Origin: a bacterium
GTDB lineage: Bacteria > Patescibacteriota > Minisyncoccia > UBA6257 > WO2-44-18
DNA: 64,000 nucleotides
Assembly (NCBI GenBank): GCA_023244815.1
Contig: JAHFLQ010000002.1
Span: forward strand, 6,994-70,993
Direction of reading: 5' to 3'
Made by a program: the position numbers and the translations under genes. Positions within the stretch are counted from its first letter, which is position 1, and every line of letters starts with the position of its first letter. Below the pieces are notes generated by a model. It saw only the letters and a program-made list of their open reading frames with translations, was not told the DNA's origin and did not search any database. Below are positions 5,107 to 35,892 of the stretch, piece by piece.

Positions 5107-5824
5107 GGCGTTGTTTTTTTGATAATAAAAATTCCGCAAATTCCCAATCAATTGGGGAATTAATGTCTATATTTTCTTCTTCTATCACATAGGGCAAAAT
5201 ACGGTCGCCGGAAACAGATTTTTTCTCCATCACTGTGGCATAGCGAGTCACATCTACCTGCCCATAGTGCGCGTAGGTTCTCGGAAGCTTCTGCCTTCCC
5301 CAACAGAACGCCTCCTTTTCTCCTGGAATAGTGATGACTGGATTCAGATAGCCGCTCTGGCTGATATGGAAGATTTTATATGGGGGCACTGGCGGCGTAG
5401 AAACCGTCCATACCGAATCGGCGCCGGGATTATTCGCGAGCATCTCAATGCCCTTCTCAATAGAAGAGAATTTCCTCAAAGGGTATGTCGGGCGTAAATG
5501 AACAATAAAGTCAGGCTTCCAGCCTTCATGCTTTTCCAGCCACTCTAGGGCATGTAAGAAAACTGGAAAATCTTTAGTGTCATCTTGCGCTATTTCCTTC
5601 GGTCGCATAAATGGCACTTCACACCCATGCTGGCGACCCACTTCCGCAATCTTCGGATCATCGGTAGTTAAAATGACACGGTCGAAATATTGCGCCGCTT
5701 TCGCGCTCTCGATGGTGTAGACCAGAAGGGGCCTGCCCAACAGCGGTTTAATATTTTTCCCCGGAACGCCCTTGGATCCGCCGCGCGCAGTGATCAGGCC
5801 TAGCACTTTGTAGTTCTTATACAT
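5099..5824 (-). CDS. CMP-sugar cytidylyltransferase, paralog 3
   Basis: Starts MYKNYKVLGLITARGGSKGVPGKNIKPL. Third tandem copy. It shares a near-identical nucleotide tract of about 46 nt with paralog 2 (5035-5080 versus 5750-5795). Confidence 0.75.
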   Translation of the reverse strand: MYKNYKVLGLITARGGSKGVPGKNIKPLLGRPLLVYTIESAKAAQYFDRVILTTDDPKIAEVGRQHGCEVPFMRPKEIAQDDTKDFPVFLHALEWLEKHEGWKPDFIVHLRPTYPLRKFSSIEKGIEMLANNPGADSVWTVSTPPVPPYKIFHISQSGYLNPVITIPGEKEAFCWGRQKLPRTYAHYGQVDVTRYATVMEKKSVSGDRILPYVIEEENIDINSPIDWEFAEFLLSKKQRHG

Positions 5825-7553: not shown

Positions 7554-8510
7554 TTAATACCATGGTTGGAGCGCGTACCGTGACGCGTGATCGGATAATT
7601 TTTCTAACTCGCTATCATTCGGATAAACAAATTGAGGCAACCACAGAGAAGCAGCGGAACAAAAACCGCCGGTAAACATCAGTCGCTGTTTACTCTTGGC
7701 ATAGCCACCCATATGAATGCCGGCGGTATCACCAAAGATAACCGTGCCGGCCCTGCCCATCGCCACCTTGATGCCGTCGTGTTGGGCGAGACGCTTTATT
7801 GCATTTTCATTGATGTTAATGCTTCCGTGAGGCGGCTTTTGCGGAAAAAGATTCCCCCAGCGCCCGCCGGAATTCGATCTGGCAAAATAACTAAGCGGCC
7901 CGGCCTCTGCGTCCACGTCACTGAGATAAATGAAGATCTTACAAAGTTTTTTATCTTCCGGATCCCGATGCCAGCGCTGGGAAGAAATCGGCTCCGCGCT
8001 TCCCACCGGCAGAACCAGGTTAAGATTGTACATATAAAACTTGGAATACATATCCAGATATCCATTAGCAATGCCCACTACTTTCGGAGATAAAGTTAAT
8101 TTGATAAATGGGTTACTTAAATCCACAGTGTTCATTTTTTCCCAGAGATCGGCGATGTAGGTCTTTCCCTTCTCCCGCTGGTGCTTATTGTCAATTAATC
8201 CTTCGGCGAATTTTTGTAACTGCGGCAAAAGATTCTGGCCCGGAAAAAGCTCATCCAGATGAGTGATGGCTATTCCGTTTTCTTTTAATTCACCGACTAC
8301 TCTCTGCTGCGCAGTATCTAACGGTTTTTTATTTTCTTCATATAACTTCCTGGCTTTCCTGTTTACAATATTAAACCAAACTGGCCAGGTGCCCTGCAAA
8401 ATATAATAAGGCCGCAAAACCCGATAGAGTGGGCGCACGGATTTTTTATACTTCAAATACACCAAGTTCGGCCAAACCGTTTTAATTTTGCTGACAAGTT
8501 TTTTAAACAT
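7554..8510 (-). CDS. PhyH-like Fe(II)/2-oxoglutarate-dependent dioxygenase
   Basis: 318 aa. It has the WHRDPED (HxD) motif and a distal His (TAGIHMGG), as in the phytanoyl-CoA dioxygenase family. Confidence 0.45.
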   Translation of the reverse strand: MFKKLVSKIKTVWPNLVYLKYKKSVRPLYRVLRPYYILQGTWPVWFNIVNRKARKLYEENKKPLDTAQQRVVGELKENGIAITHLDELFPGQNLLPQLQKFAEGLIDNKHQREKGKTYIADLWEKMNTVDLSNPFIKLTLSPKVVGIANGYLDMYSKFYMYNLNLVLPVGSAEPISSQRWHRDPEDKKLCKIFIYLSDVDAEAGPLSYFARSNSGGRWGNLFPQKPPHGSININENAIKRLAQHDGIKVAMGRAGTVIFGDTAGIHMGGYAKSKQRLMFTGGFCSAASLWLPQFVYPNDSELEKLSDHASRYALQPWY

Positions 8511-9678
8511 TGTGAAAACTTTTTTGGCTATAAAGCCTTGCCTTGCTTAATATTTTCACTATCTTATCGCTGGTGCCAGGCTGGTAGTAGACGTTGGATT
8601 TCGGATATCGTCCATGCTGGAGCTGTTTTTTTATGGATTGGATAATTAAACTTTTGTCACACTTAACGTCAATTACACTGGGTCCCCTCAAACGGCCCTT
8701 CTGCCGTGTGCCGATATTCACCACTGGAACGCCGAAATAAGACGCCTCTTTAATACCCGAGGAAGAATTACCTACCAAGGCACTGGTTTTGCGTAAGAGG
8801 CCGATAAAGTCCTCCGGCAGAAGATCGGTTATGAATCGAATTTTGCCGTTTTTGATCTTGCCGTGTTCTCGGTACATCCGAATCGCTTTCGCGATCTCGT
8901 TGGTACCGGCATCGCTATTCGGCCAAAACCAGATCGCAGGAAAATTCAGTTCATCAACGGCCTGTAAAAGTTTCTCGGTTTTTACCCGATTGTCTTTTTC
9001 GGTGGTTACAGGATGATGTAGCACCATTAAAAATGGTTTCTGCAAGTCGATCTCCGAACCAGTGCCAGTTTTATTAACCACGCGGCCATCGTGTTTCAAG
9101 TCAACTCGCGCGGCGAATTCTACCTCCGGCGACCCGACATTAAAAACCGATCTGGGATTTTCGCCCATCTGAATAACTCGGCGGCGAGCGTCTTCATTGG
9201 TCACAAAATGAATGTGCGCCAGCTTGGTAATGGCGTGGCGAATGCTTTCATCAATCGTGCCGCTCACGTCGCCCCCTTCGATGTGGGCGATGGTTTTATT
9301 GAGATAGGCCGCCACCATCGCTATAGCTAGTTGCTCAAACCGATCACCGCGAATCACTACAATGTCGGGATCCAGTTTGTATAACGAATTGGCAAATTCT
9401 AGCGCTGTCAGACCGGCGGTTTTCGCCATTGCGATGTGACTGCCGCCATCCACCACATTAAAAAGTGTGTCACCAATGGTCAGGCCTGAGGTTTTAATGG
9501 CGGGCAAAAAACGCTCGCCGTATTTATCTAATAAAATGGAACCGCCGACCACCAACTGAAGATCGATCGCCGAATTTTTTTGCAATTTTTCCAGCAAAAT
9601 TTTTTGGCGCGCATAGTGAATGCGGCTGGTAATTGGGAAGCAAATAACACGTTTTTTCTTAGGTTTTGCCGTAGCCAT
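8503..9678 (-). CDS. UDP-N-acetylglucosamine 2-epimerase, hydrolysing NeuC type, copy 1
   Basis: 391 aa. It has the Epimerase_2 family motifs HIEGGDVSGTIDESIRHAITKL and GNSSSGIKEASYFGVPVVNIG. Confidence 0.7.
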   Translation of the reverse strand: MATAKPKKKRVICFPITSRIHYARQKILLEKLQKNSAIDLQLVVGGSILLDKYGERFLPAIKTSGLTIGDTLFNVVDGGSHIAMAKTAGLTALEFANSLYKLDPDIVVIRGDRFEQLAIAMVAAYLNKTIAHIEGGDVSGTIDESIRHAITKLAHIHFVTNEDARRRVIQMGENPRSVFNVGSPEVEFAARVDLKHDGRVVNKTGTGSEIDLQKPFLMVLHHPVTTEKDNRVKTEKLLQAVDELNFPAIWFWPNSDAGTNEIAKAIRMYREHGKIKNGKIRFITDLLPEDFIGLLRKTSALVGNSSSGIKEASYFGVPVVNIGTRQKGRLRGPSVIDVKCDKSLIIQSIKKQLQHGRYPKSNVYYQPGTSDKIVKILSKARLYSQKSFHNV

Positions 9679-9728: not shown

Positions 9729-9754
9729 AAAAGGGCCCATTTAATGGGCCCTTT
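9729..9754. terminator. Hairpin aaagggccca-tttaa-tgggcccttt at the 3' end of the minus-strand gene 9741..10730
   Basis: 10-bp stem with the stop codon in the loop. On the minus strand a T-rich tract follows (ttttattgg). Confidence 0.6.
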
Positions 9755-10730
9755 GGGGTTTGTTTTCCGCGGCGCTTCGGCGGCAGGCTTCAAGAACCCG
9801 CACCACTGCGAGGCCTTCCGCGTAACCGGTCTCGACCTTCCCGCCGCTTTGAACCGCGTAGAGAAATTCCTTCAGCTCTTCTTCAATCGGATCGGCTTTG
9901 GCCACTGCCAGCTCCTGCCGGTTGGTTTCAGTTTTTTGATAGACTTCTCTGCCAGGCCTTAACCAAATCCTGTTTCTATCTATGTAGATTGCTCCGTCGG
10001 TTCCGGAAATAAAGCAATACCTTTCGATCGGCACATTGTAGTTGCACTGCAGAAACACCGTTGCTCCGTTTTCCATGTTCAAGACCACCGAACTGGTGTC
10101 GGGTGACTCCGTCTCCCCGCTAATGTTCTGCAGTTGCGCGTAAACCGACTCTACTCTCCCGAAAAGGTAGTGGATGGTATCAATACAGTGACTGCCTACC
10201 ATCACCAGCGGGCCAAGATCGGTTCTGGCGGCACTGGCGCGCCATTCGTCTTTGCGCGTCGTGAAAACTTTGCTGCTGGAATAATTGAAGTTGACGTTAA
10301 CGATCTTTCCGATCAGTCCGTCATTCAACAATTCTTTCGCCTTGCGATAAACGCTTCCGCGCCTATGGCAATGGCCGACCATGAAAACTTTGCCGGCCCC
10401 TGCGTTGAACTTTCCGAGATGGACGGCTTGATCCAAACTGTTGACCATCGGCTTTTCCACAAAGATGTGGCGTGAGCCATCTTCCAGTAGGCGCCGCAGA
10501 AGGCCGAAGTGCCGGTCGTTCGGAGAAGCAATCACGAAGGCGCCGACCGAATCACAGTTAAGCACTTCGGACAGGCTCGCTATCCCGAGAGGTCCGTAAG
10601 TTTTAGCCTTTTCCGGTTCCGGATGGTAAAGATACTTTACCTCACAGCCTCCGATTTTTAGCAGGCGAGGGTGCAATTCTTTTTGCGCGAACTCGCCGTA
10701 CCCAGCAATGCAGATGCCGATCTTACGCAT
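9741..10730 (-). CDS. Gfo/Idh/MocA-family NAD(P)-dependent oxidoreductase
   Basis: 329 aa. N-terminal Rossmann MRKIGICIAGYGEFAQ, the EKP motif (HIFVEKPM), and a C-terminal alpha/beta domain. Its G+C is visibly higher than in the flanks. Confidence 0.65.
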   Translation of the reverse strand: MRKIGICIAGYGEFAQKELHPRLLKIGGCEVKYLYHPEPEKAKTYGPLGIASLSEVLNCDSVGAFVIASPNDRHFGLLRRLLEDGSRHIFVEKPMVNSLDQAVHLGKFNAGAGKVFMVGHCHRRGSVYRKAKELLNDGLIGKIVNVNFNYSSSKVFTTRKDEWRASAARTDLGPLVMVGSHCIDTIHYLFGRVESVYAQLQNISGETESPDTSSVVLNMENGATVFLQCNYNVPIERYCFISGTDGAIYIDRNRIWLRPGREVYQKTETNRQELAVAKADPIEEELKEFLYAVQSGGKVETGYAEGLAVVRVLEACRRSAAENKPQRAH

Positions 10731-12057
10731 CGCTACTCCCCTTACCTAGACAGTTATTGCAAGGACGGAAACAGTTCTTCTTGCCGGTTATGAACGCGAG
10801 GCGGAGCTTCCGCATCGTAAGTTCGTGTTTGGTATTGCCAAGCCAGATTTCGTGAAGCGATTCGGTATTGGCATTGCCAAGACAGAGCCAGCTAAGGTAG
10901 TCGTTTTCGCACGGATTCACTCTGCCATCCGCCCAGACATACATTCTGGTAAAAGGCGCGATGCAGACCCGGTCCGGAGCCACATTGCGCGGCGTGCCGT
11001 CCGGATTGTTGAGATAGGTACTGCCCGCCTGCTCGGCATTGGCCGTCTGCACGGAAAATTCGTCCACAAGCGGCGCCCACATTACGCGCGCGGCTTCCGG
11101 ATCCTGATCCTTAGGGCGGGAAATCACCATGTTGATGCGCGTTCGCACCGGCGAATTGGGGAATTCTTCTTTGCGAATCCGGGCAAACATTTCCACGTTG
11201 GCCTTGACCTTGTCAAAATCGGCGCCGATGCGGATCTCTTCAAACACTTTCTTATCGCCAGCATCCACCGAAAAAACAATGATCAGACAGGCATTCATGG
11301 ATAGCCATTCTCGGGCCATCTTCTCGGTCAAATAAGTCGCGTTCGTGTTGAATTTGAGATGAAGCACGCCTTTTTCGTGGCAATACCGAAGCATATCCGT
11401 AAAACGCGGATTGATCGTCGGTTCGCCTCGTCCGGCAAATACCATTCCCCGACATCCGTGTTCATAGGCTTCATCCACGACCTTAGTGAAGAGCTCCCAA
11501 GGCATCGTCTTAACCTTCTGCTCTTTGATGAGTTCCTTAAGGCGTTCGTCGGACTGGTAGCACATCGTGCATACCAGATTACAATTCGTCGCCGCTTCCA
11601 AGTGCAACAAGGGTATAAAACCAGAAGTATCCAGTTTATACGCGAACTTCTTAATCTTGTAACGATAGAGAAGATATTCAATGCCCTTCTCTTCCCTCCC
11701 GCTGTCGAAAAACCGCATAACTTGATTCAATTCGCTGATCGCAAGCTCAAAGCCGTTCGTATCAAAACCGTCTTCGTCTGTGGATGGGTTTTCCAGGTCG
11801 TAGGTTTTCAGGTGCGCCAGAATGTTGTAAAGGCTGTATTCTTCCGGCTGGACATTAGTCGCAAGCCTCTTTTCAATCGCCGCAATCAGCTCGTCCAACT
11901 TTTCCTTGTCGGTGCTCTGGATCAGCGGCTTGATGCGAAGCTTTGGCCGGCCTCTTTCGTTAATCAACTCCACCGCTTCTTTAGCCCGCTGCTCAAACCC
12001 GGCCATTGCCTCTTCGCGGCGCCGCCGAATGTCATCGGATCTTTCCGACATCGCCAA
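10723..12057 (-). CDS. Radical SAM enzyme with a SPASM/twitch-like C-terminal Cys cluster and a ~150-aa charged N-terminal extension
   Basis: 444 aa. CNLVCTMC is a CX3CX2C radical-SAM motif. The C-terminus has CIAPF...C...CLGNA...CFRPCNNC cysteine clusters. The region is G+C-rich. Confidence 0.65.
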   Translation of the reverse strand: MAMSERSDDIRRRREEAMAGFEQRAKEAVELINERGRPKLRIKPLIQSTDKEKLDELIAAIEKRLATNVQPEEYSLYNILAHLKTYDLENPSTDEDGFDTNGFELAISELNQVMRFFDSGREEKGIEYLLYRYKIKKFAYKLDTSGFIPLLHLEAATNCNLVCTMCYQSDERLKELIKEQKVKTMPWELFTKVVDEAYEHGCRGMVFAGRGEPTINPRFTDMLRYCHEKGVLHLKFNTNATYLTEKMAREWLSMNACLIIVFSVDAGDKKVFEEIRIGADFDKVKANVEMFARIRKEEFPNSPVRTRINMVISRPKDQDPEAARVMWAPLVDEFSVQTANAEQAGSTYLNNPDGTPRNVAPDRVCIAPFTRMYVWADGRVNPCENDYLSWLCLGNANTESLHEIWLGNTKHELTMRKLRLAFITGKKNCFRPCNNCLGKGSSDA

Positions 12058-12147
12058 CCTCCTGAATAAATTTCAAAGGACACAGATAAAACCCGCTTTA
12101 AAGCCGTAAAGTTACGGCCAAAGCGCCAGTTAGAGAGTATAAATAAA

Positions 12148-12174
12148 ATACCCCGAAGTCAATCTTCGGGGTAT
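12148..12174. terminator. Rho-independent terminator for the minus-strand gene 12182..13249
   Basis: ataccccgaag-tcaat-cttcggggtat is an 11-bp stem. On the minus strand it is followed by tttatttat. Confidence 0.65.
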
Positions 12175-12181
12175 TGAATTG

Positions 12182-13249
12182 TTAGCTAAGCAGTTTCGTC
12201 AGGACTTCTGTCATGATCCTGACCGCGGCACCGCGTTCCTTCGGCGCCGGGAAACAGGCTTTCTGGCGGGCGCGCATTGCGTTAAAACCTCCTGGTGCCA
12301 TCAAGTCCTGAATCGCCCGCGAGAGCTCAATGGAATCGCCCATCACCGGGCGGGAAATTCCGAACTCGCACGGAGGCCAGACGTCACTGCCGGTTTGCTC
12401 TTTCATCCTCTTCAGACCGGCTGGCGAGAAAAAATCGATGACCGGTTTGCGCAGGCAAGCCGCTTCGATACCCGCAGTGGAAACTGCGGCGACCATGAGG
12501 TCGCAAACCGCGATCATATCAAGGGACTTAAGGCCCATGGCCTTTAGATCCTGTGCGGGCATGAGCCGGGCGACAACACGCTCGCCTTCGTCTCCACTAA
12601 GGATATCCTGGTAGGCGGTCGGCGAGTTCTGGTCACCCGGATGGAGCATGAAGAAAATCTTCCACCGCCGCCAGTCCTCAAGCCGAGAGACTGCCTGCAT
12701 GACCGCGCTGAAATGCGCCCTATTAACCTCCAGGTCCTTGCCGGCCGTACAGTAGAGCAGCAAATCTTCAGCGCTCATGCTGAGCAATCTCCGCGTCTCC
12801 GCTGGCGATCCGGAAAAGAAGAATGGTTCTTCCAAAACCGGATTGCCGGACGCGACCACTTCCGCGTTGGGGAAAAGTCGCCGCGTCGCCTTCGCTTCCT
12901 CCTCGGACATCACGAAAACGAACCTGGCTTTCTCGCGGAGCGGCTCGAACCAGGCGCGGCTGGAAGTTCCGAAAGTGTCCGCGTAAAAACCGTAGGGTAC
13001 GCCCGCCACGATCGCTTCCTTGGCCGAAGCAATTTCTTCCTTAGCGAGATCGGACGAGCAAGACATGCCCAAAAATAAGCATTGACTGTTGCGGACGTCT
13101 ACCGAAACTTGTTCGGCAGAGCTGGCGAGCGGCTTTCCGTGGCCCAGATAAGCCGAAACGGTAACGCCCTTGGCCGACAGATCGGCCTTAACCAAATCCA
13201 GAGTCCGAGACGGAGCCAGATCGCGCGCGACCAGAGTCGCCTTTGCCAA
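12182..13249 (-). CDS. Hypothetical GT-B-like protein, possibly a divergent G+C-rich member of the TagF-like family found in this locus
   Basis: 355 aa. The C-terminal KSLDMIAVCDLMVAAVSTAGIEAACLRKPVIDFF resembles the LADLLYHSDVVVAVASTLAIDAATLGKPVVFIGFDG motif of the 450-aa paralogs. Codon usage is G+C-rich. Confidence 0.3.
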   Translation of the reverse strand: MAKATLVARDLAPSRTLDLVKADLSAKGVTVSAYLGHGKPLASSAEQVSVDVRNSQCLFLGMSCSSDLAKEEIASAKEAIVAGVPYGFYADTFGTSSRAWFEPLREKARFVFVMSEEEAKATRRLFPNAEVVASGNPVLEEPFFFSGSPAETRRLLSMSAEDLLLYCTAGKDLEVNRAHFSAVMQAVSRLEDWRRWKIFFMLHPGDQNSPTAYQDILSGDEGERVVARLMPAQDLKAMGLKSLDMIAVCDLMVAAVSTAGIEAACLRKPVIDFFSPAGLKRMKEQTGSDVWPPCEFGISRPVMGDSIELSRAIQDLMAPGGFNAMRARQKACFPAPKERGAAVRIMTEVLTKLLS

Positions 13250-13327
13250 GTACCACCTCCAAAAAAAGAAAAAGAAGCTGAAAACGAACTGCTGCTATCC
13301 TAACACGCTCACGATAAAAGTCAAATT

Positions 13328-14038
13328 TTAACTTTTCACCATAAAATATTTTCCGTACTGCGCATCGCGTTCAATTTTATAAGGCTTGCCGGCAAAATAT
13401 TCGTCAATCGCTTTTTTCGCACCGGGACAAACAATGGCTTCATTTCTATTATCATACTCATCAAAAAGCACCACTCCGCCCTTCGCGACTTTCGAGAAAA
13501 GTTTTTCCAGGCAAGTTTTGTAGCCAGAGTAAAGATTAATGTCCAGATGAAGGAACGCGATCGGACCCATCTGACCAGCGGTTTTGGGCAGGGTATCTTC
13601 AACAAAGCCCTTTACTAATTTCACACGCTTCAAAATGTCCTCATCTATTCCTGCCCGGCGCAACACGTCAAAAACCAGATTGTCGCCAAGAAAATTCCAC
13701 TCGCCCGCCTTGCGCTCTCGCGGACTCTGATCTTCGGGTTTCGGATCGGGATAGCCCTCAAACGAATCAAAGCCCCAGAGGTTTTCTGGTCGTTTATAAT
13801 GATGCATCAGCATCGCCAGCATTTGAAAGGATTTAGCTTTCCCTACGCCGCATTCAACAATATCGCCGGATACTCTGGCAACTTTTTCCAGCATACGCTG
13901 AAAATAAAAAAGTCGGCCGGCCAGTCCCTGGGTCAGATGGAGGTCAAACTGCCGCGCGTACGCATTAGAACGCGCGCGCAATGCGTTAATTCCTAACTTT
14001 AAAAATAATTTGTTAATAAATTCCATATATGCCCTCAT
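13328..14038 (-). CDS. TylF/MycF-type (macrocin-O-methyltransferase family) SAM-dependent sugar O-methyltransferase
   Basis: Motifs GDIVECGVGKAKS, FLHLDINLY and GGVVLFDEY. The start was moved to MRAYMEF to avoid overlapping the neighbouring gene. Confidence 0.6.
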   Translation of the reverse strand: MRAYMEFINKLFLKLGINALRARSNAYARQFDLHLTQGLAGRLFYFQRMLEKVARVSGDIVECGVGKAKSFQMLAMLMHHYKRPENLWGFDSFEGYPDPKPEDQSPRERKAGEWNFLGDNLVFDVLRRAGIDEDILKRVKLVKGFVEDTLPKTAGQMGPIAFLHLDINLYSGYKTCLEKLFSKVAKGGVVLFDEYDNRNEAIVCPGAKKAIDEYFAGKPYKIERDAQYGKYFMVKS

Positions 14039-14054
14039 TTTATCGCATCCGTTG

Positions 14055-15407
14055 CTATTGCCACAATAAGATATGCTCGGCAATCCTCTGCCCAGCCTTC
14101 CCATTCAATAGTCCGCATTGCTCGCGGACTAATCGCTTCCGGCCTTCGCGGTCATGTTCGGGATGCGTGAGATATTCATTTATTGCAGCGGCCAGCTCTT
14201 CTTTGCTTTTCGGCATACGGATGCCGCCGCTTTTCAAGGCTTTTTGATAATGTTCCGTCTTATAAAAAAATGTCGGCGATTTAGACATCAGCTCTTTTTC
14301 CTTTACCTCAAAATTAATATTAATTGCCGGCTTGTCGAAGATCGCCGCCTCCACGCTCATACTAGAGGCATAGCAGATGAATAGATGGGCGTTGGCTAAA
14401 GTATCGGTCAAGCTTTTGATATCATCGAAGCTCATGTCCCAATTCACGCCCCGTACGCGCGAAAACCGGATGCCGGGCATGGCATAGCGCAGCCAGGGAC
14501 GCTTTGCCAATTCTCGCTCGTCAACAAAATCATTAGGCTGGAAACGCACAAAAAGCTGTGCGTCTCGGCCCTGTCTCTCAGTAATTATTTTGTTCAGCAT
14601 ATCAACAATGTCCCAATCGGAATTACTGAATGCTTTTCCCATTGGGGCGTACACAATGATTTTCTTCGTTGGATCTAATTTATTTTTTTCGCAGAAAGTT
14701 TCCCGGGAAACCGCTTTGTAATTAACGTGCCAATCATATTGGGGAACGCCTGAGACAAAAATATCTTTCTCTTTCATGTCCGCATAGGTCATCGCCTCTT
14801 GTTTCACAATATCATTAAACACCACCAGCGAATCCGGCAGGAGGCGCAGACTATGCCGCGTAGTTAGCTTGTCCCAAGAATTTATGAAGCCGATGGCGGG
14901 AATGCTTCTGCGCCTGGCCTCTCGCAAAAGACTAATTTCGTGATCATCAAAAAGGTGGGCTAAAAAAACCGCGGCTGGATTATATTTTTCGAAAAACTCC
15001 GTAAAAACATTACTGCGTATCAAGCGATAATCTAGCGCCCGCACTAATTTTCTTACCCAACGTCTTGCCAAAATGTGGTTAGCGATCAGCGAAAACCAGT
15101 AGTGGAGATAGCGGCGATTTTCTTCGAGGGCCATTTTCCGGCGTAAGTCAGTAGTCGCGGTGCGTAAAAGCAAGAAGCCCAAAGAGGAAAAAAGTGCATC
15201 CACCCCCCTGGGGGTAGTTAGAGGCGATACTTCATAAATTACCCGAGGATGAGAAAATTCTTTCTGGTAATATTCGGCTCTTTCCGCAGTGTCCACAAAA
15301 AAAACAATTCTCGTATCGCCGTGAGCGATGAGGGTTTTATAAATATCGGTGCGCAAAATGTTTTTTGCTTCCGCCCCCTGAAAAATTGTTATAAAAATAG
15401 TTTTCAT
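14055..15407 (-). CDS. TagF-like (CDP-glycerol glycerophosphotransferase-like, PF04464-like) GT-B transferase, paralog 1
   Basis: Start MKTIFITIF matches paralog 2. Shared motifs are GFINSWDKLT, IIVYAP and HLFICYASSMSVEAAIFDKPAININF. Family assignment is by motif only. Confidence 0.5.
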   Translation of the reverse strand: MKTIFITIFQGAEAKNILRTDIYKTLIAHGDTRIVFFVDTAERAEYYQKEFSHPRVIYEVSPLTTPRGVDALFSSLGFLLLRTATTDLRRKMALEENRRYLHYWFSLIANHILARRWVRKLVRALDYRLIRSNVFTEFFEKYNPAAVFLAHLFDDHEISLLREARRRSIPAIGFINSWDKLTTRHSLRLLPDSLVVFNDIVKQEAMTYADMKEKDIFVSGVPQYDWHVNYKAVSRETFCEKNKLDPTKKIIVYAPMGKAFSNSDWDIVDMLNKIITERQGRDAQLFVRFQPNDFVDERELAKRPWLRYAMPGIRFSRVRGVNWDMSFDDIKSLTDTLANAHLFICYASSMSVEAAIFDKPAININFEVKEKELMSKSPTFFYKTEHYQKALKSGGIRMPKSKEELAAAINEYLTHPEHDREGRKRLVREQCGLLNGKAGQRIAEHILLWQ

Positions 15408-15512
15408 CCCATTAGAAGGGCCTCCAACTTCGCTACCTTTATTATTTTTATTAGTTTCCATAAATTATGCGATCTCATTAATACGACCATACCCCTCATC
15501 CTCTAACGGGAT

Positions 15513-16868
15513 TCATTTTATGAATTGGATAAGAAAATCAGCGATTCGTTCTCCTGATCTGCCGTCCAACTTCCACGCTTGCAGTTTTAAAAACTGGGCG
15601 CGGTTTCCCCGATCTAAAGAAGTATTTTTCAAATAATTATTTATATGATAAACCAATTCTTCTTTGTTTCTCGTAAACGGCGCCCAGCGGGTAAAAAGCA
15701 TTTTCTTGGTATGATCCCAGTCTAAAAATCGGACCGCGCTTTTCAAATACGCATTATCTTTCTCTCCGTCGAAGGCAATGCCGATGATCGGTTTATCGAA
15801 AGCGCAGGCGTCGATATTCAGGCTGGAGGTATAAGCAATCACCAGATCGCTATAATATAGCGTATCAGCAAGATGGACCATCGCCTCACGGTCTAATTCC
15901 TGATCTCGATATGCCCTATCTTGAAACCTATGGGAAGGATGCTCAATCCGAAAATGATCATCAGGCACAAAATCTCCCATAGGTATCGTGTCGTTGGGCG
16001 GAATACGAACCAGAAATTGAAGATCTCTTGATATCTCGCCTTTTAGGCGGACGTCTTTCAAAATTTTCATAATTTTCCAATCGGTATCAATAAATCGGCC
16101 GCCCCAAGGAGAAAACAGGATCAGCGGTTTTTTCGGGTCAAAATTAATGTGCCGGAAAAAATCTTCCCGGCTGGATCGGGGCTCGTTCAGATAGTAATCC
16201 AGCTGCGGCATGCCGGCGACAAAGATATTTTCTTTTTTCATGCCGCCATATTGTATCGCTTCATCACGGATAATTTCATTATTTACTATCAGCTTGTCCG
16301 GCTTTATCCGAAACAAACCCTTATTGGTAATGTTGTCCCAGGAGCGGACCATGCCAACGGCGCAGATACCGCGATGCTTCGCTTCAGCCAAAAAATGAAG
16401 GTCGTCTACATGGTATACATCCGGCCCAAACACCAGGTCGGGCTGATAGCGATTAAAGTATTCAGCAAATTTACTTTTGGAAATCGTCAGCTGATCCAAA
16501 AATCGGATTAAATTCTTCACCGGCAACAACCATCCTATCCAAGAAAGGGCGTGAGAAAAAAGGTAGGCAAAGAGATTCTTATTGCGTAAAAAAATCTCTT
16601 TGCGATGAATCGCCAGGGTTTGAGTTCGAATCAGCGACCTTCCCAAATAACCAAAGACAACGTCTTGTTTAGAAAATCTTTCATTTTTAATTGGCTGAAT
16701 GATAACGTTTTCTTTTTTAAAATGCTTTTCAAAGTATTCTTTTTTGTAATCCGGGCAAAAAATCACTATTCGGAGATTTGGATTTCCGGCTAATTTCTTG
16801 AATACGTCGGTAAAAAGGATATTGCGCGTTATGAAAGGATTGAGACTGGTGATGAAGATAGTTTTCAT
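15513..16868 (-). CDS. TagF-like GT-B transferase, paralog 2
   Basis: 451 aa. MKTIFITSLNPF...GMVRSWDNITNKG...LILFSPWG...LVIAYTSSLNIDACAFDKPIIGIAFDG...LDGRSGERIADFL. Confidence 0.5.
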   Translation of the reverse strand: MKTIFITSLNPFITRNILFTDVFKKLAGNPNLRIVIFCPDYKKEYFEKHFKKENVIIQPIKNERFSKQDVVFGYLGRSLIRTQTLAIHRKEIFLRNKNLFAYLFSHALSWIGWLLPVKNLIRFLDQLTISKSKFAEYFNRYQPDLVFGPDVYHVDDLHFLAEAKHRGICAVGMVRSWDNITNKGLFRIKPDKLIVNNEIIRDEAIQYGGMKKENIFVAGMPQLDYYLNEPRSSREDFFRHINFDPKKPLILFSPWGGRFIDTDWKIMKILKDVRLKGEISRDLQFLVRIPPNDTIPMGDFVPDDHFRIEHPSHRFQDRAYRDQELDREAMVHLADTLYYSDLVIAYTSSLNIDACAFDKPIIGIAFDGEKDNAYLKSAVRFLDWDHTKKMLFTRWAPFTRNKEELVYHINNYLKNTSLDRGNRAQFLKLQAWKLDGRSGERIADFLIQFIK

Positions 16869-16953: not shown

Positions 16954-17787
16954 TTATTTGGGCTTCTTGAGCCAGTCTGCGTACTCTGTGAGGAACTGGT
17001 TGAGGACCTCATCGGTCTTGAAATGCTGAACCATCTTCGGAAAATCGTCGAAAAACTTGTAAGGCACGGTGACGATGTGCGCGCCGGCCAGCATGGCGTC
17101 GCGCACATCCCAGATCGTCCGGATCGAACCGGCAATGATCTCGCAGTTGAACTTCTCGCGGTCAAAGATCTCGCGGGTGCGCCGGACGACTGAAGCGGGA
17201 TTGCAGTCGTCGTTGGTCAAGATTCCATCGCGCAGAAGCTGTAAAGATTTTAAGCGGTGCTTTTCTAGAAAGTCCCACTGCGTCGGGTTTGACTCACACT
17301 TGCCTTGTTTAAGCTCGATTGCTTCTGGCGAAGCATCCCGAATCCTGCCCCAAAACAAGCTGGCGTAACGAGCGCCGGACTTGGCCGCCCACACTGCCTG
17401 GGAAACGGTCATGCAGGCAGTGCAGTTTACGCTGACATCGCGCCGAGCCAGATCTCGAATTACTGCGAGCTCAGGCCAGCCGATCTGAACCTTCACGCTC
17501 AAGGCGGGGTAGCGGAAAGTTGCCTTGAAATGGGCGGCCTGATTCATGATCTCAACGGGGTCTTTGGAAAAAACCTCCACGCTAAGATGCTTGTAGTGAT
17601 GCTGATCAAAAACATCTGTAACTTTGTTTTGATTGAGAATCTCGATGATCTTTCCAATGTGTTCCTCAAACCTCCCCTTCGGCTCCTTCGCGAGCAGGGA
17701 CGGGTTAGTAGTCACTCCATCGACAAACCCGAGATCCATTGCCGCCTTGATCTCATCCAGATTCGCCGTGTCCACGAAAATTTTCAT
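16954..17787 (-). CDS. Transaldolase / fructose-6-phosphate-aldolase-family protein
   Basis: 277 aa. The N-terminus MKIFVDTANLDEIKAAMDLGFVDGVTTNPSL is diagnostic of the transaldolase/FSA family. G+C is higher than in the flanks. Confidence 0.7.
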   Translation of the reverse strand: MKIFVDTANLDEIKAAMDLGFVDGVTTNPSLLAKEPKGRFEEHIGKIIEILNQNKVTDVFDQHHYKHLSVEVFSKDPVEIMNQAAHFKATFRYPALSVKVQIGWPELAVIRDLARRDVSVNCTACMTVSQAVWAAKSGARYASLFWGRIRDASPEAIELKQGKCESNPTQWDFLEKHRLKSLQLLRDGILTNDDCNPASVVRRTREIFDREKFNCEIIAGSIRTIWDVRDAMLAGAHIVTVPYKFFDDFPKMVQHFKTDEVLNQFLTEYADWLKKPK

Positions 17788-17860
17788 GCCAACCTCCTTA
17801 AAAAGAACATCCGACTAACACCAACAATGTAAAAGAATGAGGAACAAACGTCAACCTTAT

Positions 17861-17886
17861 AAAAAGAGCGCTGGTTAAGCGCTCTT
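17861..17886. terminator. Hairpin terminator with the gmhA stop codon in the loop
   Basis: aagagcgc-tggttaa-gcgctctt has A-runs before it and T-runs after it, read on the minus strand. Confidence 0.5.
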
Positions 17887-18522
17887 AATTTCTGAAATGA
17901 GTTCCTTGAGGCGGAAAGCGATCAGGTGAGCGAGCACCACGTGGAACGATTCCACCAGCGGCGTACCGAGATCTTTTTCCGCGACCGGTACCACCAGCGC
18001 GACATCCACCAACTTTGCCATCGGACCGCCATCAAAACCGGAAAGTCCAATAGTGATCCCGCCGCGATCCTTGATGTACTGAAGTCCCTTCAAGAGATTC
18101 TGCGACCACTGGCCGCCAAAATCCGATCCGCTGCCACCATGGACGCTGATACCGATACCTACCGCCTTGCGCTTGGCAAGAAAACCGTCTAACCAGAAAG
18201 TGTCCAGCCAAGACGTGAAGTAGTCTTCTTTTGGGCGATCGTTCACGATCGCGCTGATGAGCGGAATGTTGTCCCAGGGAGTCAGCGCGAAAATACTGCG
18301 CTTGCCCGGCACATCATTGACGGTTTTGGCCAAATCAGCGGCCAGATGCGAAGCGGTAGATGCCGACCCGCCATTCCCAAGAATGTAGACAGGCGCACCG
18401 TTCAGCCAGGCAGTGAAAAGAACATTGACCGCCTTTTCAATCTGCTCGCCTTGCTTTTCCAGTTCCTCAATAACACCATGGGCGCTTTGAAAGAACCGGG
18501 CAACATATTCGCGAGTATGCAC
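17875..18522 (-). CDS. gmhA: SIS-domain sedoheptulose-7-phosphate isomerase (phosphoheptose isomerase)
   Basis: 215 aa. It has GNGGSASTASHLAADL and a second SIS half (GISVHGGSG), as in GmhA. Confidence 0.7.
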   Translation of the reverse strand: MHTREYVARFFQSAHGVIEELEKQGEQIEKAVNVLFTAWLNGAPVYILGNGGSASTASHLAADLAKTVNDVPGKRSIFALTPWDNIPLISAIVNDRPKEDYFTSWLDTFWLDGFLAKRKAVGIGISVHGGSGSDFGGQWSQNLLKGLQYIKDRGGITIGLSGFDGGPMAKLVDVALVVPVAEKDLGTPLVESFHVVLAHLIAFRLKELISEIKSA

Positions 18523-18620
18523 GGGGCCTCTCTTTCCGTATTAATGAACATCCTCACCTTAATAAGAAACTCGCCAGTGGTCAATCTTGTTTCGTCGAAT
18601 CCTTGTGGTAGGCTTGAGAA

Positions 18621-19286
18621 ATGAAAGCAGTAATTTTAGCCGCTGGACGCGGAAAAAGAATGCACCACCTTACTGAAGAAACACCCAAACCGCTTCTGAA
18701 AGTCAGTGGTAAAACCTTTTTGGACATAATTTTCGATGCCTTACCGGAAGAAGTAAATGAGATCATCGTTGTTATCGGCTATCAGGGAGAGAAAATAAAA
18801 TCTTATCTCGGCGATAACTACAGAGGCCGAAAGATTCATTGTGTAGTCCAGCGGGAACTTAGCGGTACCGGCAAAGCTGTCTTGCTCACCAAAGAATATT
18901 TCAATCCCGGCGAGCGTTTCCTGATTTTCTACGCCGACGAATTAATTTCTAAGACCGATGTAAAAGATTGCCTGACCCACGAATTCAGCTGGCTTTGCTG
19001 GAAAGTAGCCGATTCGAAGGCCAGCGGCATCGCCACTATTTCTCAGGACGGATTTATCACAAAAATCACGGAGAAACCGAAAAGTCCGGAGTCCAATCTC
19101 GGTGTCACCGGTCTTCTCGTAGTGAACACGGATATTTTTCAATATGCGCCCGAGGCGCACGAGACCGGAGAATATTATCTTACCTCAATGATGAACGGAT
19201 TTGTGAAAGACCATAAAGTGTATCCGGTGATCGGGGCAAACCGACCATCTTTCAGCACGCCGGAAGACCTTGCTAAAATAAATTAA
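18621..19286 (+). CDS. Sugar-phosphate nucleotidyltransferase (HddC/RmlA-like)
   Basis: 221 aa. MKAVILAAGRGKRM...PKPLL is the NTP-transferase G-loop. It sits between gmhA and the heptose kinase. Confidence 0.65.
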   Translation: MKAVILAAGRGKRMHHLTEETPKPLLKVSGKTFLDIIFDALPEEVNEIIVVIGYQGEKIKSYLGDNYRGRKIHCVVQRELSGTGKAVLLTKEYFNPGERFLIFYADELISKTDVKDCLTHEFSWLCWKVADSKASGIATISQDGFITKITEKPKSPESNLGVTGLLVVNTDIFQYAPEAHETGEYYLTSMMNGFVKDHKVYPVIGANRPSFSTPEDLAKIN

Positions 19287-19316
19287 AAATGTCCCGAAGT
19301 ACTTCGGGACATTTTT
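19285..19316. terminator. Bidirectional Rho-independent terminator between convergent genes
   Basis: aaaaatgtcccgaa-gtac-ttcgggacattttt is a perfect stem with an A-tract upstream and a T-tract downstream. Confidence 0.8.
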
Positions 19317-19318
19317 TG

Positions 19319-20299
19319 TTAGAATTCGATTCGATGAACTCGCGATCCCTTTTTATCAATTTCGATGGGGATGATTTTCATTCCCCGCTTGGCGACTTCG
19401 CATGCCAGCCACATTTTATCTTCAACAGTTCGGCAGTAGAAGAGGAAATACCCTCCGCCGCCAGCTCCGATGAGCTTGCCGCCCAGAGCGCCGTTCCGCA
19501 TGCAAAAATCGTAAACCTCATCTATTTCCGGGACAGTCATCTTGTCGGACATCGCCTTCTTCAGCTGCCAGTGCTCATTCATCAATCGGCCGAAGCTTTC
19601 AAGATCGCCGGTCAAAAACCCGTCTAGCATCCAGCGGCCGATTTCTTTGGTGCGGTGTTTCAACTCCAACACCATCGGCGCGCTCTGATCGCGAAGAATT
19701 TCCACGCTGTCGCGCCGGATACCGGTATAGAAAAAGAGCGAACAGTTTAAAAATCTGTCTCTCGTTTCTTCGCTGATATTCGGATGATGCCACTTTACCG
19801 AATCATCATTGGCAATCTCCATTACCAGAAAATCGCCCAACGCCACGATGTAAGGATCCTGTTTGCCATCGGGAAGTCCGAGTGTCTGCGTGATCTGGAA
19901 GGCCTGCTCGGCCAGTTCTTCCTGGTTTTTAATCGAGCTCAGACCTTTGTGCCACCAGAGCGCGTTCAGCAGTCCAACCGCGCAACTGCCGGAACCGCCC
20001 AGGCCAGTGCCGATCGGGGTATCCGATTTGAAATAAACGCTGACACACCGATCAACACCGGTGAGCCGTAAAGCCTCTCGCCCAATCGGGTGTTGAACTT
20101 CGTCAACGGAGTTTACAGATTCGAACTTCAGATACTGAAGATCGATCTTGTCGTAGATCACCGGTTTCCTGATGATGATATCAATGTACATCTTGATCGC
20201 CACGCCAAAAATGAATCCGCCATGACTACGTGAGTAAGAAGGGAGGTCAGTTGAACCGCCTCCCAGCGAAATCCGGAAAGGCGTTCGGGCAATGAGCAT
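19319..20299 (-). CDS. GHMP-family D-glycero-D-manno-heptose 7-phosphate kinase (HddA-like)
   Basis: 326 aa. The N-terminus MLIARTPFRISLGGGSTDLPSY and the PIGTGLGGSGSCAVGL GHMP ATP-binding motif. Confidence 0.7.
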   Translation of the reverse strand: MLIARTPFRISLGGGSTDLPSYSRSHGGFIFGVAIKMYIDIIIRKPVIYDKIDLQYLKFESVNSVDEVQHPIGREALRLTGVDRCVSVYFKSDTPIGTGLGGSGSCAVGLLNALWWHKGLSSIKNQEELAEQAFQITQTLGLPDGKQDPYIVALGDFLVMEIANDDSVKWHHPNISEETRDRFLNCSLFFYTGIRRDSVEILRDQSAPMVLELKHRTKEIGRWMLDGFLTGDLESFGRLMNEHWQLKKAMSDKMTVPEIDEVYDFCMRNGALGGKLIGAGGGGYFLFYCRTVEDKMWLACEVAKRGMKIIPIEIDKKGSRVHRIEF

Positions 20300-20361: not shown

Positions 20362-21099
20362 TTATTTTTGCAATATCCAAATCTGGTTGTAACCCCAAAG
20401 CTTTTCAAAATAACCCATTAATTTCGGTAGATAACCGGCGAGAGATAAAATCCGTTTTCTGATAAACCCCTTTACGCCGGCAAGGCTCCGCGGATCAATT
20501 AGATATTCCATATCAACTTTTTTAAAATATTTGGAAATCGCGCTCTGAAAAGTTCCTGGCGTAAAAATGGAAACGTGATTTTTCCCGGGATAGTACCGAG
20601 CCAGTTCTCCATTCTTCAAAAAGAAGTTAATGCTGGCCCGGGAAAGAATATGGGGGAGACTTAAGATAAACAAACCTCCGGGTTTTAAAATTCGCAGAGT
20701 TTCCCTGATACAAAAGTGGGGATTTTCTAAATGCGGGAGGACGCACCAGGCCGTAACGATATCAAAAGAATTGTCCGGCCACGACACCTTGTCATAGCTC
20801 AAATCGGCGGTTTTAAATTCTTTGACGTAACCTTTGTTTTCGTCGGCAAGATAGTTGTCGATGTCCAGGCCGGAAACATTGTGAAATCCCAGTTGGTATA
20901 ATTGGGCAACAAAGGCGCCGCCGGCTACGCCGTAATCCAGAAATTTCGTGGTTGATCTGTCTTTAAAAAAACGGTCGTGATATCTGGCAACCAGATTGGC
21001 AGCAAAAAGATTCTGTAAATTTCTGCCAACGTAATTTCCCATATCATTCCTAAGCCTTTCTCGATTATTCTTAATTTCCTGATTGGTAAGGTATTCCAT
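20362..21099 (-). CDS. Class I SAM-dependent methyltransferase (Methyltransf_11-like), MTase family A, copy 1
   Basis: Motifs LDYGVAGGAF and ILKPGGLFILS. The start was set at MEYLTNQ (ATG at 21099) to avoid a head-on overlap with 21172..22068. It shares the WPDNSFDI..AWCVLPHLENP motif with 32338.. and 37263.. Confidence 0.6.
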   Translation of the reverse strand: MEYLTNQEIKNNRERLRNDMGNYVGRNLQNLFAANLVARYHDRFFKDRSTTKFLDYGVAGGAFVAQLYQLGFHNVSGLDIDNYLADENKGYVKEFKTADLSYDKVSWPDNSFDIVTAWCVLPHLENPHFCIRETLRILKPGGLFILSLPHILSRASINFFLKNGELARYYPGKNHVSIFTPGTFQSAISKYFKKVDMEYLIDPRSLAGVKGFIRKRILSLAGYLPKLMGYFEKLWGYNQIWILQK

Positions 21100-21171
21100 T
21101 GTTTCTACAGTTATAAAATCACGCGTAGCAATAATTTGCAACGTGTTATATGATAGAAATAATTTATTATC

Positions 21172-22068
21172 ATGCAAGTTTCTGACCATCGTTTTCTCAA
21201 TATTCTTCTCTGCCCCAATTGTAAAACGGCTAATCTGGCCGACCAAAAGGACAAGCTGACTTGCCGCCAATGCCAGTCAACTTATCCTGTTGTAAATTCC
21301 GCACCTTATCTGATTCACCAGGAACTGATTCAACAATATAAACAATATCAGAAAGAGGTGGCGTCGCCCGTCAACAAGCTCAAGACGCTCATCAAAAAAT
21401 CCCCTTGGCTTTTCCAATTTCTCACCTACGCTATTGGCAGTATCTCCTATTTCGGCTGGTCACCGAGGAAAGCACTGAAAAAAACCTTCCGAGAGGAACA
21501 GCTTCACGGCAAGATCATACTGAATATCGGCTCGGGCATCAAAGCGATCCACCCGGAAGTTATTAATGTGGACATCTTTCCCTACCAAAATGTGGGATTG
21601 GTCACGGATGCTACCAAATTACCGATTACTGACAATTCGGTAGATATGGTTATTACCGAATCCACCCTGGAACATATTCCGGATGTCGAACTGGCGATCC
21701 AAGAAATCTGCCGCGTGGTCAAACCTGGCGGATTCGTCTACATCAGCATCCCTTTTCTTATGCCATTTCACGCCTCGCCAAATGACTACTTCCGCCTCAC
21801 CAGTGCAGGAATAAAACATAAATTCGCTATCTTCGAAGAACAGCGGGTGGGCATGAACGGCGGGCCGGCTTCCGCACTGGTTACCCTGTTAATGCACTTT
21901 TTCGCCCTGCCATTTTCTATAATCTCAACAAGTCTCTACAACTTTATGACTTACGTCATAATGGCGGTTTTGTCCCCGCTCCGCATTTTAGATCTTGTCT
22001 TTTACCTTTTCCCCAGGTCAATGGATGCGGCCGCGATGACTTATTTCATCGGCAAGAAGCGCGCCTAG
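21172..22068 (+). CDS. Trm112-like zinc-ribbon plus class I SAM methyltransferase with a hydrophobic C-terminal tail
   Basis: 298 aa. ILLCPNCK...LTCRQC is a zinc ribbon. LNIGSGIK and VVKPGGFVYISIP are MTase motifs I and II. The last ~60 aa are hydrophobic. Confidence 0.55.
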   Translation: MQVSDHRFLNILLCPNCKTANLADQKDKLTCRQCQSTYPVVNSAPYLIHQELIQQYKQYQKEVASPVNKLKTLIKKSPWLFQFLTYAIGSISYFGWSPRKALKKTFREEQLHGKIILNIGSGIKAIHPEVINVDIFPYQNVGLVTDATKLPITDNSVDMVITESTLEHIPDVELAIQEICRVVKPGGFVYISIPFLMPFHASPNDYFRLTSAGIKHKFAIFEEQRVGMNGGPASALVTLLMHFFALPFSIISTSLYNFMTYVIMAVLSPLRILDLVFYLFPRSMDAAAMTYFIGKKRA

Positions 22069-33116: not shown

Positions 33117-33139
33117 AAACCCGGTGCTGAACCGGGTTT
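33117..33139. terminator. Bidirectional hairpin terminator
   Basis: aaacccggt-gctga-accgggttt is a 9-bp stem. On the minus strand it is followed by tttttaatt. Confidence 0.6.
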
Positions 33140-34202: not shown

Positions 34203-34274
34203 AAAACCTCCACCATTAGAACCCTCAACGAGCCATCTAGGTTATAGCAGGCCGTGAAATAACGGTCAATTAAA

Positions 34275-34297
34275 AACCCCGATGCAGGATCGGGGTT
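34275..34297. terminator. Hairpin terminator for the minus-strand gene 34307..35092
   Basis: aaccccgat-gcagg-atcggggtt. On the minus strand it is followed by ttttaatt. Confidence 0.6.
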
Positions 34298-34306
34298 CGT
34301 TACTGT

Positions 34307-35092: not shown

Positions 35093-35095
35093 TTG

Positions 35096-35824: not shown

Positions 35825-35892
35825 TGGTTTTCCTTTCATCATTGCCCACATAATGAAACACAAAATCGATCAAAAAGGTTATACTGATACCA

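Follow-up and report, generated by a model that had tools for sequence, protein, structure and literature searches.

A 64-kb window of a metagenome-assembled genome (MAG) from an uncultured bacterium of the Patescibacteria, or Candidate Phyla Radiation (CPR), encodes five paralogous proteins of 447–458 amino acids (aa), which we interpret here as putative glycosyltransferases. T14055 (14055–15407) and T15513 (15513–16868) lie in tandem on the minus strand, T30905 (30905–32281) and T38031 (38031–39380) are also on the minus strand, and T35893 (35893–37236) is on the plus strand. Pairwise BLASTP aligns the five at 23.5–41.8% identity over 445–472 columns (E 1.8e-27 to 1.1e-124), except for the pair T30905/T35893, which aligns across 328 columns only (E 4e-23), and the similarity is far beyond chance. 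T35893 is the most divergent paralog, with 23–26% identity to the other four, while T38031 is closest to T30905 (42%). An earlier sequence-only reading of the window had placed five ~450-aa paralogs here. The open reading frames (ORFs) are present at those positions and align end to end, and every motif it quoted is found in the paralog consensus, which contains MKTIFITSF..RN.L, GMVRSWDN.T.KG, HLAD.LY..D......SSL.IDA..FDKP.I and KLDG.SGER. The longest ORF of T14055 would begin at 15461, but the start taken in the sequence-only reading, MKTIFIT at 15407, agrees with the other paralogs; both starts are in use among public gene calls. A hidden Markov model (HMM) of the family, run on the window, recovers exactly the five paralogs (E 1e-114 to 3e-215) plus a remote relative at 12182–13249 (E 5.8e-6) and reveals no further hidden copies. 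Proteins identical to those of the window are also encoded on a 98-kb ENA metagenome contig.

In a Pfam-A scan (E ≤ 0.01), PF04464 is the only family matched by the five paralogs. Specifically, four of them pass its gathering cut-off of 22.1 bits, at 27.6, 43.7, 38.3 and 40.8 bits (E 1.8e-6 for T14055, 2.3e-11 for T15513, 9.9e-10 for T30905 and 1.7e-10 for T38031), and T35893 falls just short at 20.8 bits. The match covers profile positions ~127–366 of 367 in every paralog and leaves the N-terminal acceptor domain unmatched. The only significant sequence matches in the PDB are TarL (8va1) and Cps3D (8qoy), both in the C-terminal nucleotide-binding domain, and the same searches turned up no sialyltransferase. 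The Pfam models for GT38, GT42, GT52, GT80 and Capsule_synth (PF05159) match no paralog at E ≤ 0.01, so that the profile checks proposed by the sequence-only reading came out for PF04464 and against PF05159 and these sialyltransferase models.

Among NCBIfam models, NF046086 (BFO_1060 family glycosyltransferase) is the best for all five paralogs, with E-values from 2.3e-12 for T15513 (profile positions 34–365) through 1.9e-16 for T14055 to 5.8e-22 for T35893, the best of the five. The T15513 match runs from residue 129 to the C-terminus and includes the S-W-D region discussed below. BFO_1060 is an allele of Tannerella forsythia GtfS (Tanf_01245 / TFUB4_00887), a 445-aa TagB-like protein, and deletion of gtfS strips the S-layer O-glycan of its terminal derivative of pseudaminic or legionaminic acid (PMC5420450; PMC6120980). 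The remaining NCBIfam matches are slight: TIGR04396 (surface carbohydrate biosynthesis protein) scores 22.2 and 33.8 bits in two paralogs only (cut-off 125), TarB/TarF models match weakly, and T15513 gives a faint match to NeuC (E 0.006).

The AlphaFold2 model of T15513 (pLDDT 93.8, pTM 0.91) shows a GT-B fold, with two Rossmann-like domains separated by an inter-domain cleft, and Foldseek matches it with probability 1.00 to MshA, UDP-GlcNAc 2-epimerases, TagF and PglA, bearing out the earlier description of the proteins as GT-B enzymes. The fold alone is not discriminating, because Foldseek ranks the 2-epimerases and MshA above TagF. No transmembrane segment is predicted in the paralogs (maximum 19-residue Kyte–Doolittle hydropathy below 1.5). 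A basic and aromatic four-helix insertion of ~60 residues, at residues ~67–128, could sit at the membrane surface.

Nine residues are invariant across 43 family sequences: P143, S176, W177, D178, G219, D224, R288, P360 and R441. The family segment LVR-x-x-P-N-D aligns with IIKPHP or LIKPHP of canonical PF04464-type proteins from a Priestia plasmid, and R288 by this alignment takes the position of the lysine in K-P-H-P. Four of the five paralogs have Q, P, Y or A in place of the histidine of this segment (VRFQPN, VRIPPN, IRPYMV and VRSALV); it is kept in RIHPN of T35893, the sole paralog with an H-P motif (FFRIHPND), and in a Rhizobium homolog. The canonical Priestia proteins have Q-H-G/A 42–44 residues before G-H-P-x-Y-D, and the family has D178 at a distance of 41 residues before G-x-P-x-x-D. 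Judged by this spacing, Asp178 of the invariant S-W-D may stand in for the Q-H-G histidine and replace the catalytic histidine of TagF-type enzymes as base, an assignment based on motif spacing rather than on structural superposition. CMP-sugar glycosyltransferases typically use an acidic base. In TagF these histidines are H444 and H548, the targets of the mutations in PDB entries 3l7j and 3l7m. The paralogs lack the conserved histidines of PF04464 enzymes, except for that of the C-domain in T35893.

The TagF-like, PF04464 assignment of the sequence-only reading therefore stands for the superfamily, with four of five paralogs over the cut-off, whereas a plain TagF label is too narrow, because only the C-terminal two-thirds match, the histidine is gone in four of five and the window lacks CDP-alditol genes. 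The paralogs are a divergent, large, Patescibacteria-expanded and uncharacterised branch of the known TagB/TagF-like superfamily. A profile search of 1.84 billion cluster representatives (50% identity) yields 8,924 matches at E ≤ 1e-3, 4,919 at E ≤ 1e-10 and 1,771 at E ≤ 1e-30. Nearly all proteins returned by homolog searches are patescibacterial or unnamed metagenomic, the named ones coming from Harrisonbacteria, Minisyncoccia, Campbellbacteria, Azambacteria, Niyogibacteria and similar groups, and public annotation calls the family either 'hypothetical' or 'CDP-glycerol glycerophosphotransferase family protein'.

Methyltransferase genes accompany the paralogs. A TylF-type O-methyltransferase (13328–14104, minus strand; PF05711 E 5e-25; 232-aa start in public calls) adjoins T14055. 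Three class I S-adenosylmethionine (SAM) methyltransferases form a second family, family A (MT_A), with 37–40% mutual identity and no relationship to the TylF-type enzyme: one (32338–33111, plus strand; PF08241 E 2.7e-19) is divergently paired with T30905, another (37263–37958, plus strand; E 1.3e-16) lies between T35893 and T38031, and the third (20362–21270, minus strand; E 2.8e-15) adjoins no transferase. Additional methyltransferases are encoded at 21172 and 43722. The two types and their positions are those given by the sequence-only reading, and its statement that each transferase is adjacent to a methyltransferase is correct for four of the five, T15513 being one gene away.

The association extends to other genomes. 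We scanned species-representative genomes with the family pattern GM[VI]RSWD[NY] and recovered 79 related loci, all in Patescibacteria MAGs; the sample is biased towards the paralogs' own branch because the pattern is family-specific. These loci hold 151 family ORFs (one in 33 loci, two in 21, three in 24 and four in 1), and enrichment of neighbours was assessed by 2000 rounds of within-locus shuffling. Methyltransferases occupy 45 of 245 flanking slots versus 28.4 ± 4.1 after shuffling, and none of the 2000 shuffles reaches 45. Together with one natural fusion of a family domain to Methyltransf_23 (P0135), this upholds the transferase–methyltransferase link that had been proposed. Other fusions join the family domain to a polysaccharide deacetylase (P0194) or to itself in tandem (P0121 and P0122, ~900 aa). 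As clues to the donor the fusions are silent, their partners being methyltransferase, deacetylase and self, with no nucleotidyltransferase among them.

The window also encodes enzymes for cytidine monophosphate (CMP)-activated sugars. Three tandem PseF-like CMP-sugar synthetases of the CTP_transf_3 family are encoded by overlapping ORFs at 3669–5824 (minus strand; PF02348 E 3e-20 to 4e-26), and a fourth PseF-like cytidylyltransferase (40772–41536, minus strand; E 2.2e-22) lies two genes from T38031. TIGR03584 (PseF) is the best NCBIfam match of all four, at 146–197 bits for the tandem three and 124 bits for the fourth against a cut-off of 205.7, and all four are far less close to KdsB than to PseF. 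A pair of genes at 28595–30861 (minus strand) encodes NeuC, the hydrolysing UDP-GlcNAc 2-epimerase (TIGR03568 402 bits, cut-off 236), and a NeuB-family nonulosonic acid synthase whose gene, at 29758, abuts T30905 (PF03102 E 5.6e-61; NeuB_NnaB 272 bits, cut-off 400). A second NeuC-type 2-epimerase is encoded at 8503–9678 (minus strand; TIGR03568 363 bits, cut-off 236). A UDP-ManNAc-dehydrogenase-like enzyme, GT2 and GT4 transferases, several short-chain dehydrogenase/reductase (SDR) epimerases or dehydratases, and multi-pass membrane proteins are encoded as well. The 64-kb window holds no TagD, TarI, TarJ or glycerol-3-phosphate cytidylyltransferase, genes that could lie elsewhere in the genome, and its remaining nucleotidyltransferases are generic sugar-1-phosphate types. 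It likewise holds no DegT-type aminotransferase and no pseB/C/H/G-type genes. There is thus one NeuB for four cytidylyltransferases, which leaves the substrates of at least three of the four PseF-like synthetases unaccounted for. The sugar is probably not pseudaminic acid (Pse) or legionaminic acid (Leg), because the locus is without pseB/C/H/G-type and aminotransferase genes.

A different set of sugar genes, at 16954–20299, comprises a transaldolase, a SIS isomerase, a nucleotidyltransferase and a GHMP kinase and resembles a GDP-heptose pathway, with scores well below the cut-offs for GmhA (56/209 bits), HddA (123/600) and HddC (70/300).

Across the 79 loci, a CTP_transf_3 homolog lies within 10 kb of the family genes in 44 and NeuB in 34, and 22 of the 30 loci of at least 20 kb carry one or the other. 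In particular, CTP_transf_3 genes are immediate neighbours of family genes 17 times versus 9.5 ± 2.6 after shuffling, a number reached by 9 of 2000 shuffles, while NeuB, GT4 and SDR genes show no immediate-neighbour enrichment. T15513 represents the commonest subfamily, with 74 ORFs of its type, of which 11 adjoin CTP_transf_3, the most of any subfamily. No ORF in these loci carries the cytidylyltransferase signature G-x-[FYCVI]-D-x-x-H-x-G-H, and no CDP-alditol cytidylyltransferase family appears among the top 25 neighbour Pfam families. Flanking genes unmatched in the window are mostly more sugar-modifying enzymes: among 106 such genes there are 23 methyltransferases, 12 polysaccharide deacetylases, 9 GNAT acetyltransferases, 7 GT9 enzymes, 5 formyltransferases, 2 carbamoyltransferases and 2 sulfotransferases. 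A general rule of one paralog per CMP-sugar was considered and rejected, since copy numbers are uncorrelated across the 30 long loci (r = −0.22).

A full-length member of the family is also found in a cultured bacterium, Rhizobium sp. WL3 (WP_147885260; HMM E 9e-55), where it keeps GSWDQ and its gene comes directly after neuB, kpsF, a glycosyltransferase gene, neuC and a PseF-like neuA. The same plasmid region (NZ_CP042825, 621–646 kb) encodes at least two more remote TagB-like 'hypothetical proteins' with HP motifs. In Priestia, PF04464-type genes adjoin pseB and pseC.

Each paralog has closer orthologs in other Patescibacteria than in the window: the best external ortholog and the best in-window paralog share 69% and 34% identity with T14055, 72% and 37% with T15513, 57% and 42% with T30905, 64% and 26% with T35893, and 48% and 42% with T38031. 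Database homologs of T35893 share up to 77% identity with it at full length and up to 79% where 93% of the query is aligned. The sequence-only reading had suggested a paralog tree to date the duplications. In a neighbour-joining tree of 147 sequences, the duplications prove to be old: all paralog pairs except T30905/T38031 coalesce only in clades spanning 74–78 loci, and the common-ancestor clade of T30905/T38031 alone is small (11 sequences, 9 loci). Gene order is conserved as well. The divergent pair of MT_A and a T30905-type gene recurs in five loci (L008, L009, L010, L032 and L039), with 22 T30905-type genes flanked by 12 MT_A-type genes overall, and the T15513–T14055 tandem followed by a 12182-type gene recurs in L004, L005 and L007. 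The paralogs are thus old subfamilies in conserved synteny, and the earlier picture of repeated duplication of a transferase-plus-O-methyltransferase module is not supported. Recent local duplication of a module is rejected also because the gene pairs differ in orientation and the TylF-type enzyme is unrelated to methyltransferase family A.

Genes for a radical SAM/SPASM protein (10723–12057) and a GFO/IDH/MocA oxidoreductase (9741–10730) form a block with T15513, T14055 and the 12182 gene in L004 and L005; in L007, the transferase genes and the radical SAM gene are present, but the contiguous block is not. This arrangement suggests that a radical-SAM sugar modification is tied to these three transferases.

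The ORF at 12182–13249 (minus strand, 355 aa), noted earlier as a possible G+C-rich relative, is a true remote homolog. It gives no Pfam (E ≤ 0.01) or NCBIfam match and, searched as a single sequence, only a 30-residue match to the family, whereas profile–profile alignment with hhalign gives a probability of 97.7% (E 2.4e-12, 285 columns, 15% identity). Its AlphaFold model (pLDDT 95.2) shows a compact, complete GT-B fold, which is without the helical insertion. Its motif LHPGD comprises invariant H203 and D206 with nearly invariant P204-G205 between them. The G+C content of its region is 0.527 compared with about 0.44–0.46. More broadly, positions 10000–14000, spanning the radical SAM gene, the remote GT-B gene and the TylF-type gene, have a G+C content of 0.52–0.53 versus 0.43–0.46 on either side.

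We consider it reasonably probable that the paralogs are CMP-nonulosonic acid transferases that work with methyltransferases on a surface glycan, as GtfS does. Among the functions that the sequence-only reading had named for a CMP-sugar context, sialyl-type transfer is the one that the evidence favours, with NF046086 as the best model and PseF-like genes as enriched neighbours. The five paralogs would be peripheral, cytoplasmic GT-B transferases with a cytidine-nucleotide donor. We infer that this donor is a CMP-activated nonulosonic (sialic-acid-like) sugar supplied by the NeuC/NeuB and PseF-like enzymes of the locus itself. The paralogs would add it to an acceptor sugar of a surface glycan that is still being built and is probably lipid-linked; in the order that we infer, the neighbouring SAM methyltransferases would act afterwards, on the product or on a residue close to it. 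As well as being old subfamilies, the paralogs may be functionally separate, differing in donor and/or acceptor. A stronger version, which we put forward only tentatively, is that the family is a new class of CMP-nonulosonic acid transferase on a TagB/TagF scaffold, with the Asp of S-W-D in place of His, and that its arrays, with as many as five or six old subfamilies in one locus, build a multiply sialylated, O-methylated surface glycan with the help of several PseF-like synthetases and dedicated methyltransferases.

Several observations weigh against a nonulosonic acid donor. The NF046086 scores, at 46.7–78.3 bits, are far under the 200-bit cut-off, which makes the paralogs remote relatives rather than members, and the Rhizobium protein gives no match to this model. 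The HP motif of sialyltransferases is present in one of the five paralogs only, and Foldseek, in placing MshA and UDP-GlcNAc 2-epimerases above TagF, returns TM-scores of about 0.5–0.6 throughout. The single NeuB for four cytidylyltransferases, the missing aminotransferase and the uncorrelated copy numbers of family and cytidylyltransferase genes point the same way, as do 6 of the 30 long loci, which have 3–4 family genes and no CTP_transf_3 within 10 kb, and the position of T15513/T14055 beside a heptose-like gene set here, in L005 and in L022. Furthermore, the evidence for GtfS is genetic, not enzymatic. Bacillus subtilis SpsB is, by description, a similar TagB-like GT-B protein encoded in the sps operon beside NeuB-like and CMP-synthetase-like genes, and it was proposed as a nonulosonic acid transferase, yet its deletion left spore legionaminic acid unreduced (PMC7439481). 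By analogy, the transferase of a legionaminic acid operon need not be its TagB-like gene product, and genomic association alone is no proof of nonulosonic acid transfer.

Some of these observations would suit GT-B glycosyltransferases that use another donor, such as NDP-heptose or UDP-hexuronic acid, and whose link to nonulosonic acids reflects no more than shared large glycan loci. T15513/T14055 come directly after the transaldolase–SIS genes, with the nucleotidyltransferase and GHMP kinase genes nearby, GT9 heptosyltransferases recur as neighbours (7/106), some loci with 3–4 family genes lack a cytidylyltransferase within 10 kb, and the best Foldseek matches are generic GT-B enzymes. We nevertheless regard another donor as unlikely: the sequence relatives of known donor (TarL, Cps3D, TarB/TarF and GtfS) all use cytidine nucleotides, the cytidylyltransferase, unlike GT4, SDR epimerase and NeuB genes, stands out as an enriched immediate neighbour even against the sugar-rich background of these loci, and the heptose-pathway assignments, notably of HddA and GmhA, are weak. 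The paralogs might instead be true TagF/TagB-type alditol-phosphate transferases, which would use CDP-glycerol or CDP-ribitol to make a teichoic-acid-like polymer or glycerol-phosphate decorations. Such a role agrees with PF04464 as the sole Pfam match, with TarL and Cps3D as the only PDB sequence matches, with the weak TarB/TarF matches and with the name 'CDP-glycerol glycerophosphotransferase family protein' given to several homologs; Patescibacteria are, moreover, thought to be monoderm. It is quite unlikely, given a profile match without the N-terminal acceptor domain, a K-P-H-P histidine changed in four of five paralogs, Asp178 at what is by spacing the Q-H-G position, and neither TagD/TarI/TarJ in the window nor the corresponding signature in the 79 loci, where the enriched neighbour cytidylyltransferases are of the CMP-ulosonic acid type.

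It is very improbable that the paralogs are not transferases at all but GT-B sugar-nucleotide processing enzymes, 2-epimerase- or PseG-like hydrolases of nonulosonic acid biosynthesis. UDP-GlcNAc 2-epimerases and NeuC are among the top Foldseek matches of both models, T15513 has its faint NeuC match, and a few homologs (P0039 and P0369) have a precomputed PF02350 match. Yet TM-scores of 0.5–0.6 at 6–9 Å root-mean-square deviation reflect the general fold, profiles favour PF04464 and BFO_1060 over PF02350, and the genetics of GtfS are those of a transferase. The window, moreover, already has two bona fide NeuC proteins, and it is hard to see why one locus would need five to six hydrolase paralogs.

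Four further regions of the window bear on the glycan. Between two transferase/methyltransferase pairs, at 33138–35863, lie genes for an AroB-related 'sugar phosphate phospholyase (cyclizing)' (TIGR04425, 394.6 of the 400 bits required), an HpcH/HpaI-like aldolase and an SDR. Neither the phospholyase nor the aldolase has a homolog in the 79 loci, and only one locus has a homolog of the SDR; together the three may make an unusual sugar or ulosonic acid by a pathway particular to this genome. The gene at 22069–23961 encodes a 630-aa protein that belongs to no Pfam or NCBIfam family and has ~11 predicted transmembrane segments. It has homologs in 20 of the 79 loci, in up to three copies (L010) and nine times as immediate neighbour of a family gene, and its product may be a polymerase, a ligase or a GT-C-like enzyme. 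The gene at 39384–40775, flanked by those of T38031 and the fourth cytidylyltransferase, encodes a 463-aa protein with ~10 transmembrane segments, no family match and homologs in 18 of the 79 loci, a candidate flippase or polymerase. Finally, the gene at 48630–52457 encodes a protein of 1275 aa that carries a signal peptide and matches PG_binding_1 weakly, just below the cut-off (22.3 versus 23 bits), and that may be the cell-surface glycoprotein target; the order of this gene, a tetratricopeptide repeat (TPR) protein gene and GT4 genes recurs in L039.

Few transferases are known for nonulosonic acids other than sialic acid, and those are poorly defined; the TagB-like type rests on the genetics of one species. 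The family described here is abundant and well delimited, with confident models and invariant S176-W177-D178, R288 and R441, and it supplies many testable candidates of transferase plus methyltransferase; Rhizobium sp. WL3 could be tractable for genetics. Its widespread annotation as 'CDP-glycerol glycerophosphotransferase', which wrongly implies teichoic acids in CPR bacteria, is corrected. Our results suggest that ultra-small, host-attached bacteria devote much of a tiny genome (here over 45 kb) to an acidic, methylated surface glycan, which bears on host attachment or evasion. In the literature library searched, no paper contains both 'Patescibacteria' and 'nonulosonic', and among the papers listed for the Candidate Phyla Radiation with sialic-acid terms none mentions the CPR. 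Should the proposal of a new transferase class be true, it would give the first defined cell-surface glycan chemistry for episymbiotic CPR bacteria and a candidate new CAZy family; if the paralogs were ordinary TagF enzymes, the finding would be routine.

Compared with known systems, the paralogs share with TagF, TarL, TagB and Cps3D the GT-B fold, the C-domain motifs G-x-P-x-x-D and (K/R)-x-x-P, the D/SS...D/E...KP helix–strand, and a peripheral membrane character without a transmembrane helix. They differ from these enzymes in an unmatched N-domain, in the loss of the K-x-H-P histidine in four of five and in the N-domain histidine position, which appears to hold Asp178. Their window, moreover, offers no supply of CDP-glycerol or CDP-ribitol, and their partners are CMP-ulosonic acid synthetases and methyltransferases. 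With GT38, GT42, GT52, GT80 and KpsC/KpsS the paralogs would share the donor class, CMP-ulosonic acid; several of those families are GT-B or GT-B-like and have an acidic base, but the paralogs give no profile match to them and are not members.

The closest likeness is to GtfS. An HP motif is reported for GtfS and found here in one paralog only, and T. forsythia has one copy where the window locus has five to six; the invariant S-W-D and the ~60-residue helical insertion are features of the window family, which was compared with GtfS through the NF046086 profile. In size (445 aa versus 447–458 aa), GT-B fold and TagB-like homology the proteins agree, and NF046086 is the best curated profile for all five paralogs. 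Both loci encode CMP-nonulosonic acid synthesis, UDP-ManNAc-dehydrogenase or 2-epimerase enzymes, GT1 or GT4 and GT2 transferases and a flippase or flippase-like protein, the T. forsythia O-glycosylation cluster including wecB/wecC, GT1/GT2 genes and a flippase gene (PMC6120980). In that cluster, mtfJ and mtfO come next after gtfS, and a gtfS mutant makes a glycan short of one methyl group as well as Pse (PMC6120980). Methyltransferase genes directly flank the transferase genes in the window as well, and by this analogy the layout of the patescibacterial locus mirrors the O-glycosylation cluster of T. forsythia.

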